This document shows positions 19,462 through 26,882 of a stretch of 41,897 nt of DNA, in pieces. This DNA is from a virus (taxonomy: Duplodnaviria; Heunggongvirae; Uroviricota; Caudoviricetes). Position 1 is the stretch's first letter; each line of letters opens with the position of its first letter. Both the position numbers and the translations under genes were made by a program. The stretch lies in the IMG/VR virus record IMGVR_UViG_651053023_000011, positions 1-41,897 of that record; one strand, 5' to 3'. A model generated the notes under the pieces. That model was not told where the DNA came from. It saw only the letters and a list, made by a program, of their open reading frames with translations, and did no database searches.

Positions 19462-21219
19462 TTAAAGCGAGCGAATACCAACGCTGACCAGATGCTCAGA
19501 CAGATCCGGCTCCGGTTCACCGCCATTGACCAGCATCCGGCTCATTGCTGTAAACATCGCCACAGGGCCGTCGATTTTGGCTTCCGGCGTGGATTTATTC
19601 GGGAAGATATTGTTGTTTTTGTCCGGTTTCACCGTAACGTTAGACATCATCCAGTTCATGACCGGGTGATTGCTGTGGTGGAAACGTCCGGCATAGACCA
19701 GTGATTCCGTTTCCTTCATGGCCTCTGACAGATTGCGGACCGTCTGCGGAACTTCCACCAGCGGTATACCTTCTTCAGCCAGCGCCAGACTGAACTGCAT
19801 TGCGCTCCACGGGTCAAATCCCAGTTCCCTCAGGTTTTCACCGCCAATCCATTCCAGCAGGTCACTTTTTATCTGAGTATGATCGATAACATCACCATCC
19901 GTCAGGATGAGCTTATCCATCTCCGCCCACTTCCGGTAAAGTTCTGCCTGCTGCCGTGAGCATCGTTCCAGCCGTCCTTCCGGAAGCCAGAATTTAAAAT
20001 CGGCATGAACATGCCCGTTATCCGTTCGCCAGAGTTTTGCCGCCGCACAGATATCAATCTTATGAGCAAGGTCGACGCCGACCCACATGGGATATGTTTT
20101 CAGCTCATGCTGTGGAGCGATGTATTCACACTTCTCCCACTTAATCATATCCATCCAGGCAGACTCGGCAGTGACCCACACATTCATGTGTTTGGTAAAA
20201 AAATTCACCCGCGCTGAAACCTGTTCCTTCGCTTTTTTCGCCAGACGACGCAGATCATCCCAGCGTTTACAGATGCCCAGGCCCGGATTCGCTTTCTGCC
20301 AGACCGTTTCATCAAACGGATCATCTCCCTCATCGAGCGTGTAAATAATCGCAAAGTAGGAGTCGTCTTTTACCGCGCCCTCCACGTCGCTGTTATAGCC
20401 TCGCAATACCTTGATGGCGTAATCGCGTTGCTCGTAACAAATCCCTTCCTTGTTAAAGCCCGCCGTGGTGATACCAAATAACAGGGACTGCAGACGGGCA
20501 CCGGTTGCCGTTTCCAGAACGTCCCACACGTCGCGGGTTTTATGTGCATGCAGCTCATCAATAATGGCGCAGTGGATGTTCAGACCGTCCAGGTTGTTTG
20601 CATCCGAGGAAAGCGGTTCAAATTTTGATGCGCTCTGCTCCTGGTAAATCGCCAGCTTGTTGAAATCAAACAACCGCCCGAGTGTCGACCGGGCTTTCCT
20701 GACCATATTTTTGGCGTCTTCAAACACAATTCTGGCCTGGTCACGCGTGGTTGCGGCTGAATACACCTCAGCACCGCCTTCACCATCTGCCCCCGTCATA
20801 TACAGGCCGATACCCGATGACAGGGTTGATTTTGCGTTTTTACGGGCGACTTCGTTGTACGCCGTCCGGAACCGGCGCACCATCACCGGACGTCCGCTGC
20901 CATCGCTGCGCATGACAACTTCCCCGGTCTCTTCATTGACCAGCGGAATGACAAAACCAAAAATATTAATGAGGATAAATACATGCCAGTCCATCAGTTC
21001 AATGGGCTGGCCTGCCAGCGCCCCTTTTACATGGGGCACAAATTTGTAGAAATTCAGGATGTGCTGCGCACGGGGTTCACTGAAATAAATCCCCCGCTCT
21101 TCGCCGTACTTCAGATCATCAAGAAAACGCTGGCAGGCCAGACGGACAAATTCGCCAGCGACAATTTCTCCTGCAACAACACGTTCGGCGTAGCGGATCC
21201 CGTCAGCCACTTTTGCCAT
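19462..21219 (-). CDS. terminase large subunit
   Basis: 585-aa ORF; ATPase and nuclease regions typical of large terminases; ATGA overlap with small subunit. Confidence 0.9.
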
Positions 21220-24520: not shown

Positions 24521-24942
24521 AGGTACTGCTCCAGCGGCAACTGCAGCGCCTGAGCAATTTTCTTGAGCTGCGCTTCTTCATCCGGACCAATGCCGTCCTG
24601 GTCAGCAATATCGAGACACAGGCACAGCACATCAACCGCTTCGGCGGTTCCTGCCACATCAGCCAGTTCACGCAAAGCCTGAGCATTCGCACTACGAGGT
24701 GACGCTTCATAACGGGCGCGGATATTTGCACTCATTTGTGCAATCTCACCGGAGAACGGCGCAAAGGCAGGAAGTGCTGCAATGGTTTTTTCCAGTACAG
24801 CGATTTCTTTCGCATCACAGGTGCCGTCGGCGAATGCTATGGAATACGCGCCCCAGACGGTCGCCTCCACTGCGTCGCGGTTCTCCATCTTCTTCACTTC
24901 AGTAATGGCCTTGCGGGTTTTCTTTTTGAAAATACCAAACAT
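24517..24942 (-). CDS. TerB-like domain protein
   Basis: 140-aa ORF with AAGGA RBS; paired acidic motifs (AFADGTCDAKEIAVLEK and LDIADQDGIGPDEEAQLKKIAQ) typical of TerB fold. Confidence 0.65.
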   Translation of the reverse strand: MFGIFKKKTRKAITEVKKMENRDAVEATVWGAYSIAFADGTCDAKEIAVLEKTIAALPAFAPFSGEIAQMSANIRARYEASPRSANAQALRELADVAGTAEAVDVLCLCLDIADQDGIGPDEEAQLKKIAQALQLPLEQYL

Positions 24943-24961
24943 CGTGACTTTTCCTTTTAGT

Positions 24962-25053
24962 GGGTGAGCCTGCGCCCGGGGGTGACCAGTCCACAGAGAA
25001 AGTCACACTGACCATCCCGTAAGCTCACCCCTGAAAGGCTCTGTGGTTTTTTT
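24962..25053 (-). other. structured leader with interleaved dyads upstream of TerB-like gene
   Basis: GGGTGAGC (24962-69) pairs GCTCACCC (25023-30); CCACAGAG (24991-98) pairs CTCTGTGG (25039-46); T7 run follows on + strand. Confidence 0.35.
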
Positions 25054-25126
25054 GATGTGCGCCGGGCGTGGCGCGGAAATAAAAAAGGCCCGCCGTAGCG
25101 AGCCGCATAAATACTGAATTCTGAAT

Positions 25127-25150
25127 AAAAAAAACCGCCTGGCGTGGCGG
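25127..25150 (-). terminator. rho-independent terminator downstream of tRNA genes
   Basis: CCGCC/GGCGG stem with 6-nt loop followed on the minus strand by T8. Confidence 0.5.
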
Positions 25151-25516
25151 TCTATGGCATAAAATGGCATGAAGAGAACGCGATGATTTTATTATGACCA
25201 GAGACGTCGGGTGCCTCCCGAAACATCCAGTCCTGCATGGATGCTGTGGTTTCCCGCAAAACCGACTCTTTCAACCACCCTCGCACTGAGGAACGTCTCT
25301 GGGGTGTTATTTACAACACCGGAATGATACATTACCAGCCCTGCCAGGAAATACAAATCTCCACCAGTAATGCACCATTCCACTATTGTAAAAAAACAGC
25401 ACTGGTACCGTAATAAATAATATTCATTACAGAACAGGATGTGGTAAGGAGTTAGGGTAAAACATCCCACACATATAATGTGTCAGTGCCTGAAACAGCC
25501 TGGCATCGTCCTCTGC

Positions 25517-25591
<75 letters not shown>

Positions 25592-25594
25592 ATA

Positions 25595-25670
<76 letters not shown>

Positions 25671-25835
25671 AATGGTTCCTCAAGAAAAATAAAATGCCCC
25701 AGCAATACCCCCTCGGAACCGGGTGCGAATATTAACGAGATAAGATATTTTTTCAACAAAAATCAATGTCAATATTTGTAAATATACTCATATATTTTTA
25801 TTATTTCAATAATTAATAAATAACAGAAAGCGTGT

Positions 25836-26882
25836 TTAAAGATTATTTTCTATTACAGTTACAGTTTGATTAAATCTCTCTTTTTCCAGTTCCACACCAA
25901 TTGCCCGACGCCCCAGCGTCATTGCGGCTTTAATTGTGGAGCCTGACCCCATAAAGAAGTCGACAACCAAGTCTCCCGGACGACTGCTGGCGGTAATTAT
26001 CTGACGTAACATATCCGCTGGTTTTTCACAGGGATGTTTGCCCGGATAATACTGCACAGGCTTGTACGTCCAGACATCGGTATAAGGAACAGCAGCCGAT
26101 ACGGAAAAATAACGCCGTAAAGATTTGTACTCTGCCAGCAGGCTGGCATATTGTCGGTTCAGTTCACTGTATGCGCTGACCAGCTGGTGATGTGGTTTTT
26201 CCAGTTCTCCGCGCTGATGCTTTTCTGCTGCTACACGTGCAAATAACACCTGCAGTTTTCTGTAATCACCCTCGTTCGGCAACTGCCACTGACTTGTACC
26301 AAACCAGTGTGACGCCATGTTTTTCTTTCCGGTCGCTTCCGCTATCTGTTTCGATGTTACCCCAAGTGAATCACGCGCATCACGAAAGTAAGAAATCAGC
26401 GGGGCCATGACGTGCTGTTTTAGCTCGCGTCCCTTTGCCGCATAGCCGTCATTTTTGGGCTGGTATGGCCCCTGATAATGTTCTGCAAACAGAATGCGTT
26501 CTGTTGCAGGGAAATACGCCCGCAGGCTTTCCTTGTTGCATCCGTTCCAGCGTCCGGACGGCTTCGCCCAGATAATGTGGTTCAGCACATTAAAGCGCTG
26601 ACGCATCATGATTTCGATATCAGATGCCAGGCGATGACCACAGAACAGGTAGAGACTTCCGGCAGGTTTCAGTACCCGCCAGAATTGCGCCAGACACTGA
26701 TCCAGCCATTTCAGGTAATCATCGTCGCCCTTCCACTGGTTATCCCAGCCCTCGGGCTTCACTTTAAAGTATGGCGGGTCTGTGACTATCAGATCGACAG
26801 AGTTTTCCGGTAAGGTCTGGATAAATTCCAGGCAATCAGCGTTGATTAACTCACAACTGGATATTTTTACAGTATTGGCCAT
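25836..26882 (-). CDS. DNA methyltransferase, beta-class (N6-adenine or N4-cytosine), orphan
   Basis: 348-aa ORF with TDPPY catalytic motif near N-terminus and FxGSGST SAM-binding motif near C-terminus; no adjacent restriction enzyme. Confidence 0.85.
   Translation of the reverse strand: MANTVKISSCELINADCLEFIQTLPENSVDLIVTDPPYFKVKPEGWDNQWKGDDDYLKWLDQCLAQFWRVLKPAGSLYLFCGHRLASDIEIMMRQRFNVLNHIIWAKPSGRWNGCNKESLRAYFPATERILFAEHYQGPYQPKNDGYAAKGRELKQHVMAPLISYFRDARDSLGVTSKQIAEATGKKNMASHWFGTSQWQLPNEGDYRKLQVLFARVAAEKHQRGELEKPHHQLVSAYSELNRQYASLLAEYKSLRRYFSVSAAVPYTDVWTYKPVQYYPGKHPCEKPADMLRQIITASSRPGDLVVDFFMGSGSTIKAAMTLGRRAIGVELEKERFNQTVTVIENNL

Follow-up and report, generated by a model that had tools for sequence, protein, structure and literature searches.

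Q antitermination is usually regarded as the sole control of late operons in lambdoid phages. The window (the whole stretch of DNA analyzed, 41,897 nt) represents a lambdoid (Stx2e/P27-like) prophage of E. coli, in which interleaved inverted repeats precede a gene of the TerB family, tciA. The question raised by this locus is what such repeats may do in the leader of a late gene. The original prediction had considered a pseudoknot-like element acting in translational control or RNA processing, or a terminator of the plus strand. As described below, the repeats belong to a fold of about 135 nt, built of seven helices (H0, F, A, S, B, E and C) and located on the minus strand between the late-operon terminators and the tciA start codon. 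This structure is far larger than the two dyads noticed at first, lies directly 3′ of two minus-strand terminators, and is a member of a multi-copy family of leaders that measure ~120-150 nt.

The region around the leader is 100% identical to the corresponding regions of STEC308 and ETEC1703. The features of the locus are collected in Table 1. The genes 3′ of tciA encode a DUF3927 protein, two holins and an M15 endolysin. A DUF1133 gene, which we take to encode a Q-like antiterminator, directly precedes this module in ETEC1703. Readthrough of the tR′-like terminators is thus required before the polymerase arrives at its first ORF there, tciA, and the analyzed sequence forms the 5′ leader of this ORF; the gene order suggests that the leader is carried on the Q-dependent late transcript.

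Table 1. Position of the leader, its helices and the neighboring features (leader positions 1-148 correspond to window positions 25087..24940, with the AUG at 146-148).
Feature	Window position	Strand	Leader position	Remarks
DNA methyltransferase gene	26882..25836	-		
Promoter-like site TTGAAA-17-TATATT	25781..25809	-		
tRNA-Thr(UGU) and tRNA-Gly(UCC)	25517..25670	-		followed by a spacer of ~360 nt
First intrinsic terminator, tR′-like	25124..25153	-		3′ of tRNA-Thr/tRNA-Gly; terminator scan
Second intrinsic terminator	25078..25104	-		terminator scan; T-run stops 3 nt short of H0
H0 hairpin GCGCC-ACGCCC-GGCGC	25059..25074	-	14-18/25-29	
Helix F, 5′ strand: H0 loop CGCCC	25068..25064	-	20-24	kissing
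Helix F, 3′ strand: j2 bulge GGGCG	24973..24977	-	111-115	inverted repeat I9
A-rich single-stranded linker ACAUCAAAAAAA	25047..25058	-		T7 run of the + strand as complement
A1 CCACAGAG, helix A 5′ strand	25039..25046	-	42-49	
Anti-SD CCUUU, helix S 5′ strand	25034..25038	-	50-54	abuts A1
B1 AGGGGUGAGCU, helix B 5′ strand	25022..25032	-	56-66	includes partner of dyad GGGTGAGC
E1 CGGGAUGGUCAG, upper helix E 5′ strand	25008..25019	-	69-80	
C1 GUGACUUU, helix C 5′ strand	24999..25006	-	82-89	apical loop; inverted repeat I6
A2 CUCUGUGG, helix A 3′ strand	24991..24998	-	90-97	apical loop; abuts C1
E2 CUGGUCACCCCC, helix E 3′ strand	24978..24989	-	99-110	
B2 GGCUCACCCACU, helix B 3′ strand	24959..24970	-	118-129	includes dyad GCTCACCC
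Shine-Dalgarno (SD) AAAGG, helix S 3′ strand	24953..24957	-	131-135	
C2 AAAGUCAC, helix C 3′ strand	24944..24951	-	137-144	SD-AUG spacer
tciA, TerB-family gene, 141 aa	24517..24942	-		first ORF past both terminators

Two further features of this region are worth recording. The tRNA-Thr and tRNA-Gly genes are located between the promoter-like site and the two terminators, so production of these tRNAs should not require antitermination, as the short transcript that stops at the terminators would suffice. The hairpin of the first terminator (ACCGCCACGCCAGGCGGT, 25132-25153) is nearly a copy of H0 (GCGCCACGCCCGGCGC, 25059-25074) with the same loop (direct repeat D1), and it gives a weak match to the H0 part of the covariance model described below; it may be a remnant of another copy of the leader.

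Inspection of the plus strand confirmed the two interleaved dyads, each of them a perfect 8-bp repeat: GGGTGAGC (24962-24969) with GCTCACCC (25023-25030), and CCACAGAG (24991-24998) with CTCTGTGG (25039-25046), as well as the run of seven T residues at 25047-25053. The prediction had not included a third perfect 8-bp dyad, GTGACTTT (24944-24951) with AAAGTCAC (24999-25006), which is interleaved with both others, or a 7-bp dyad, CGCCCGG (24973-24979) with CCGGGCG (25062-25068). However, dinucleotide shuffles of the window contained on average 2.7 interleaved pairs of perfect 8-bp dyads, and at least one such pair was present in 155 of the 200 shuffles; the pattern alone is therefore not significant. 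Folding of both strands gave only mildly unusual values (z = -2.2 for the minus strand; z = -2.6 and -53.6 kcal/mol for the plus strand). It is the conservation of the dyads and the compensatory changes in related loci that, judged from the aligned sequences, place them beyond chance. The only other site of the window where perfect 8-bp dyads interleave is 20592-20700 (GGTTGTTT and AGGAAAGC, each with its complement).

In the minus-strand RNA the dyads become parts of a larger fold. A long hairpin is formed by helices S and B (together about 16 bp, with GGGUGAGC/GCUCACCC included in helix B) and by helix E, which adds about 12 bp beyond a 3 x 7-nt loop. Crossing this nested set (S, B and E) are helices A, C and F, each of which shows changes on both sides. 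The AUG of tciA begins 1 nt past C2. The A-rich linker varies in length and sequence among relatives (e.g. UUCAA in type II). As had been proposed, the interleaved pairings thus amount to a fold of the pseudoknot type, carried by the minus-strand late transcript in the leader of the TerB-like gene, and both of the predicted helices are kept in relatives.

Beside the SD helix, a C.A mismatch (window 25033/24958) is present in 51/51 short-type leaders (see below) and 52/57 tciA-type leaders. A neighboring 2x2 internal loop alternates between U.G (19), C.A (13), A.G (10) and A.A (7), which looks like selection on the geometry of a non-canonical pair (reference positions 43/106 and 47/102 in the short-type alignment A3). 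Two other roles for sequences within the leader were considered. A leader peptide was rejected, since the AUG at 25015 opens an out-of-frame ORF that is missing in types II and III. No sigma-70-like site that could serve as an internal promoter for a leaderless translatable mRNA was found inside the leader, nor on inspection of the short type.

The pairing was examined using 172 tciA loci with a usable start, derived from genomes, viral contigs and metagenomes. The leader is present in 121 of them, and unrelated leaders precede the gene in the remaining 51. The comparison included the diverged types I (that of the window), II and III, together with those of L117/L214, L120/L009, L228, L014/L022 and L088. 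Among 57 distinct tciA-type leaders, 93.7% of the cells are paired, compared with 39-47% when the partners are slid, and 14 pairs have changed on both sides, compared with 6.2 in shuffles (0/500).

Compensatory changes were found throughout the structure. The H0 stem is replaced by GCGUC/GACGC (L228), ACGCC/GGCGU (L009) and CCGCC/GGCGG (L120), and helix A by CCAUGGAG/CUCCAUGG (L228), CCGCAGA/UCUGCGG (L117, L214) and CCACAA/UUGUGG (L120, L009), while the L030 group has CCACGGAG with a G.U pair. Helix C is compensated as AUUACGUC/GACGUAAU in L120 and UUCGUC/GACGAA in L009, and helix F appears as CGCUC/GAGCG in 17 tciA-type sequences. In helix S, a C-G pair is exchanged for U-A in L120/L009 (columns 64/156); in helix B, A-U is exchanged for G-C in L014/L022 (columns 69/151), and U.G for C-G at its inner end (columns 81/140). 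Helix E has G.U pairs on the minus strand and compensations in types II and III, in L120 and in the short type. Conserved G.U pairs occur on the minus strand only (columns 92/119, 93/118 and 81/140). On the plus strand they would be C.A, which identifies the minus-strand RNA as the selected molecule.

In decayed copies (the L003 type and L338/L356) several helices are lost together. In L338 (1109-1240) and L356, A2 is deleted, A1 is mutated to CCACATAA, and tciA is disrupted; in these two loci, degeneration of the leader thus appears to accompany that of the gene.

Paralogues were sought with an HMM and a covariance model derived from the tciA-type alignment. The covariance model revealed paralogous leaders of the same architecture (E-values from 1e-16 to 1e-4) before unrelated genes. 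A short type of leader is among the paralogues. The same test applied to 51 distinct short-type members (alignment A3) showed that 92.2% of the cells are paired, compared with 28-49% for slid partners, and that 68 cells have changed on both sides, compared with 21.3 in shuffles (0/500).

In the short type, helix F is 99.2% paired, with C-G to U-A exchanges at two positions, helix A has both-side changes in 6/6 pairs despite 1-nt register slips, and helix E contains four compensatory pairs. RNAalifold independently gives H0, S, B and the base of E. The CUUU of the anti-SD is invariant across the family. Helices S and B are nearly invariant, so their pairing rests mainly on conservation and three compensatory cases, and in alignment A3 their 5′ strand was fixed by the search pattern, with the 3′ strand free. 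Two limits of the alignments affect the counts: L120 and L009 were misaligned by MAFFT in alignment A1 and helix A slipped by 1 nt in alignment A3, which makes the counts conservative; in alignment A2, made with the covariance model, the loop region is too poorly aligned for pair counts.

Across the family, helix F occurs in five covarying versions (CGCCC/GGGCG, CGCUC/GAGCG, CGCAC/GUGCG, CGCAU/AUGCG and CGUAC/GUACG), to which CUCAC/GUGAG (phi80, HK620) and CACAC/GUGUG (L105b, the second copy in L105) can be added. Helix A has at least 12 versions, always at the same two structural places; besides CCACAGAG/CUCUGUGG, they include GAAAGU/ACUUUC, GAGAG/CUCUC, CGAGA/UCUCG, CGAUA/UAUCG, CAGAGA/UCUCUG, CACAGAA/UUCUGUG and CCCGAG/CUCGGG. 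Helix C of a 135-nt subtype, UGCGUUU/AAACGCA, is compensated to AGCGUUU/AAACGCU in L387, and in L105b it takes the form AUCGGUG/UUACCGAU, covering the AU of the AUG; it is absent from most short-type copies. Register-free permutation of duplex energies favored the own partners over foreign ones for helix A (-9.2 versus -6.2 kcal/mol) and helix F (-10.3 versus -8.3 kcal/mol). For helix C the difference was weak (-5.9 versus -5.0 kcal/mol), because only some subtypes have this helix. The apical loop of L394 (982-989) and of most short-type copies is UUAACUUU, the same eight bases as the ‘epsilon’ enhancer of T7 gene 10; this is probably a coincidence, as other subtypes differ in the loop.

Analysis of the distribution of the family revealed leaders before a variety of genes. 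Second copies in tciA phages precede genes for a KilAC-Ant-like protein (L041) and a Rha-like protein (L105). Further second copies are followed by genes for a 246-aa N15 gp59-like protein, a GT2 glycosyltransferase, an HNH endonuclease, tail-tip-domain proteins and several small unknown proteins. In L358, the gene of an SBP-like secreted protein follows a tciA-type leader, with the junction exactly at the ATG. BLAST searches and locus views placed copies in phi80 (before rha and before ORF x171.28), in HK620 (between Rz and the KilA-like hkbK) and in HK639 (after the major tail gene and its terminator and before gp13); others are present in mEp043, mEp213, mEp237 and mEp390 as well as in Salmonella, Klebsiella and Enterobacter phages. 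Two pattern scans of IMG/VR detected the leader in at least 119 and at least 120 contigs. In 5426 complete E. coli genomes, the tciA type was found in 205 and the short type in 112.

Genomes of E. coli with any copy have a median of one place, and all inspected contexts are phage late regions, unlike a chromosomal repeat family (REP/BIME, ERIC or MITE), of which numerous scattered copies would be expected in each genome outside prophages. A hairpin followed by a T-run lies just 5′ of H0 in 199 of the 257 distinct contexts. The 51 tciA loci with other leaders (e.g. L139-L175, L007, L008 and L011) have wholly different upstream regions, which can be sorted into several recurrent types. Since about 30% of tciA genes have such other upstream regions, the leader is a module that can be exchanged, and tciA does not depend on having it as a partner.

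Rfam 15 gave no relevant match at gathering scores for the window and eight paralogue loci, or at E ≤ 10 for 24850-25250; the scans of the window, these loci and the leader returned only tRNAs, C4, isrK, int-alpA and noise. The C4 antisense RNA (83 bits, 33801-33888, minus strand) and the Hfq-binding RNA isrK (59 bits, 33913-33989, minus strand) form a P1/P7-type immunity module in the window. C4 RNA was considered as a trans partner of the leader and rejected: its loop CCGUAUGC matches GCAUACGG, which flanks its own locus on both sides, and nothing in the leader. The leader is not described in the literature consulted on tciA, ISEc20, rha/phi80, HK639, late-operon pseudoknots and phage structured-RNA surveys. 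The family is apparently undescribed so far, although it may be among the unnamed candidates of large surveys (e.g. that of 2023, with ~10,000 phage csRNAs).

The anatomy of the leader suggests a function in translation. The 3′ border of the leader is always the SD/AUG, the SD-AUG spacer covaries with the loop, and the downstream genes are unrelated accessory genes, all of which argues for control of translation initiation. On balance, we consider it probable that the leader is a cis-acting gate on the minus-strand late transcript, which by default keeps translation initiation low. From the conserved and covarying helices, the strand that carries them and where they lie with respect to terminators, SD and AUG, we infer that translation would be the controlled process, that all helices may form at once, and that a trigger (protein, temperature, ion or ligand) may act on them.

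The proposed mechanism is as follows. Once the polymerase has passed the two tR′-like terminators, the nascent RNA would fold compactly. The long bipartite hairpin (S+B, then E) would have as its base the weak, A-U-rich SD/anti-SD helix beside the C.A mismatch. Of the apical loop, the 3′ half (A2) would pair with A1, the 8 nt immediately 5′ of the anti-SD, and the 5′ half (C1) with C2, the 8 nt between the SD and the AUG; the H0 loop would kiss the bulge between B and E. Since A1 and the anti-SD, C1 and A2, and the SD and C2 are each contiguous, helices A, S and C would meet at a three-way junction (with linkers of 0, 0 and 1 nt) locking the ribosome-binding site (RBS). The S+B stack would comprise about 16 bp and the E+A stack about 20 bp (15-16 bp in the short type); as these lengths are nearly equal, the two stacks could lie side by side, joined at the top by the B/E bulge with the docked H0 loop and at the bottom by the direct link of A1 to the anti-SD. 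In this way initiation at tciA and, via the paralogous copies, at other accessory genes of a heavily transcribed late operon would be kept low or conditional.

Calculations of RBS accessibility bear on this proposal in two ways. Helix S has a pair probability of 0.67-0.75 (MFE and nested ensemble), and the SD residues G134 and G135 are unpaired with a probability of only 0.01-0.02 (nested ensemble). The computed energies are -2.6 kcal/mol for helix S, -12.2 kcal/mol for helix A and -8.2 kcal/mol for helix C. When only nested pairs are considered, opening of the tciA RBS costs 6.9 kcal/mol, which is below the median of 10.0 kcal/mol for 35 other ORF starts in the window. Given the weakness of helix S and this low nested cost, effective occlusion must come from the clamps A and C. 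The idea of a translational control element is thus supported by the anatomy, with the SD and the SD-AUG spacer paired inside the fold, but not by the nested opening cost, which is unremarkable. The absence of helix C from most short-type copies also counts against it.

An unlikely alternative is a module for RNA processing or stability (an RNase III-type site or a protective 5′ fold). It would divide the late transcript between the part with the tRNAs and terminators and the downstream mRNA, whose half-life it would set; any effect on translation would be secondary, in the manner of the T7 RNase III sites or the lambda N leader. It is consistent with paralogous structured elements repeated between genes of one operon, with the long hairpin containing an internal loop (about two turns of dsRNA), and with a position directly 3′ of terminator hairpins that would make stable 3′ ends. 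However, it leaves unexplained why the SD/AUG is the constant 3′ border, why the SD-AUG spacer covaries with the loop through helix C, and why the loop pairs back beside the anti-SD; moreover, an RNase III-type cut should fall in just the bulge that helix F fills.

The compact stable fold and its variable loop sequences might also be read as a trans-acting small RNA, in which the part from H0 to B2 is cut from the late transcript and the loops serve as seeds; its A-rich linker and the U-rich terminator tail could, by their composition, bind Hfq. We regard this as very unlikely, since the variable loops covary with partners in the same molecule (A1, C2 and j2) and not with outside targets, the scans gave neither an own promoter nor a terminator at the 3′ end, and the leader always continues into the SD/AUG.

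Rearrangements within the leader bring up a DNA-level explanation, namely a boundary of recombination cassettes or an insertion target of IS110-family elements, with no function of the RNA. ISEc20 (IS110 family) is inserted in a homologous leader right after ...CCACAGAGCCTTTCGGGGG, within B1 (L001, 3001-3081 and 3078-4536; LC567818 and ten other PPompW prophage records); in these prophages the lysis cassette is missing 3′ of ISEc20 and the terminase genes come next. In L119 (1803-1903) and L216 (800-954), a remnant consisting of H0 and A1 is fused to the start region of a gene for a 166-aa HNH endonuclease-like protein, situated about 460 nt upstream of an intact leader of the L120 type; recombination thus seems to have taken place within the leader. 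Such gene-replacement junctions, inside the leader or at its end (at the ATG in L358), together with the ISEc20 insertion, are what this explanation has in its favor. It is nevertheless scarcely credible, as compensations in five to seven helices, G.U pairs conserved on one strand, and pairings of loop with bulge and loop with flank indicate selection on a folded single strand rather than duplex DNA; recombination at the leader is more likely a consequence of its conservation. Finally, a plus-strand intrinsic terminator formed by the CCACAGAG...CTCTGTGG hairpin, which the T7 run directly 3′ of CTCTGTGG and the folding of the plus strand (at least as good as that of the minus strand) had suggested, is rejected, since the arms are 40 nt apart, the terminator scan gives none at 24962-25053, the T-run is not conserved (its complement, the linker, is reduced to AA in types II and III), the G.U pairs conserved on the minus strand become C.A, and no plus-strand gene lies upstream or ends there.

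Compared with known systems, the leader resembles pseudoknot translational operators in kind and differs from them in architecture, multi-copy spread and coupling to terminators. The closest analogies are the S4 operator of the alpha operon (rpsM) and the S15 operator of rpsO in E. coli, in which a loop also pairs beside the start codon and a nested or double pseudoknot surrounds the RBS; of the features that define such operators, the leader has compensated interleaved helices and an overlap with the SD and spacer. It has no sequence relation to them and no known protein partner, it adds the loop-bulge kissing helix and the three-way junction, and, in contrast to one autoregulated operon, it occurs in many paralogous copies before unrelated phage genes. 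An encoded protein is unlikely to regulate its own synthesis here, because the proteins encoded downstream are not the same from copy to copy. The leader of T4 gene 32 is likewise a phage mRNA pseudoknot 5′ of the RBS that acts in translational control, but it is a small, single-copy H-type knot that nucleates gp32 binding and does not pair with the SD.

In the riboswitches SAM-II/V and preQ1-II/III, the SD or its flank is also held in a pseudoknot helix that gates initiation. The leader has no match to an Rfam aptamer and no ligand pocket was identified in it. The downstream genes (TerB, Rha, KilA/KilAC, GT2, HNH, SBP-like, tail-tip and unknowns) share no metabolic or transport theme, and this heterogeneity argues against a metabolite riboswitch. 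With FourU and ROSE thermometers the leader shares a weak SD helix (-2.6 kcal/mol here) whose other strand is short and U-rich, with a mismatch (C.A here); these are simple hairpins, whereas the weak helix of the leader would be clamped by two pseudoknot helices and a kissing interaction. The RNase III sites of T7 (R0.3 to R18.5) and the lambda N-leader site are similar in being paralogous intergenic bipartite stems with an internal loop, and processing at them can unmask an RBS; they are without pseudoknots or kissing helices, and the leader, at most a putative cleavage site, ends precisely at the SD/AUG. In phage Mu, too, the leader of mom, an accessory gene that is expressed late and may be harmful, keeps the RBS in an inhibitory structure, which a phage factor (Com) opens. 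The mom leader is in structure and sequence unrelated to the one described here, and an activator candidate is available only for mom. Processive antitermination RNAs (HK022 put and EAR) lie upstream of the terminators they suppress, just 3′ of the promoter. This class was rejected for the leader, which is placed directly downstream of terminators in 199/257 contexts.

For plain attenuation a simple hairpin would be enough, and the complexity of the fold hints at something more. A speculative and, in our opinion, improbable extension is that the family is a class of sensing riboregulators, whose double pseudoknot binds an ion, a small molecule or some factor of phage or host and switches on the translation of accessory genes. 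If so, the copies would constitute a post-transcriptional regulon of moron-type genes (tciA, rha, KilA-like genes, those for the glycosyltransferase and the HNH endonuclease, and others) in lambdoid late operons.

The conserved, multi-copy RNA fold between the terminator and the start codon of accessory genes, found also in phi80, HK620, HK639 and Stx2e-type prophages, would imply a second, post-transcriptional layer of control, which chooses those non-structural genes that are translated from the late transcript. For RNA biology, the family offers a compact fold of ~120-140 nt with two pseudoknot helices, a loop-bulge kiss and rich natural covariation, which lends itself to probing and structural work. 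For phage biology, it may provide a handle on genes of unknown role 5′ of the lysis cassette, such as tciA.
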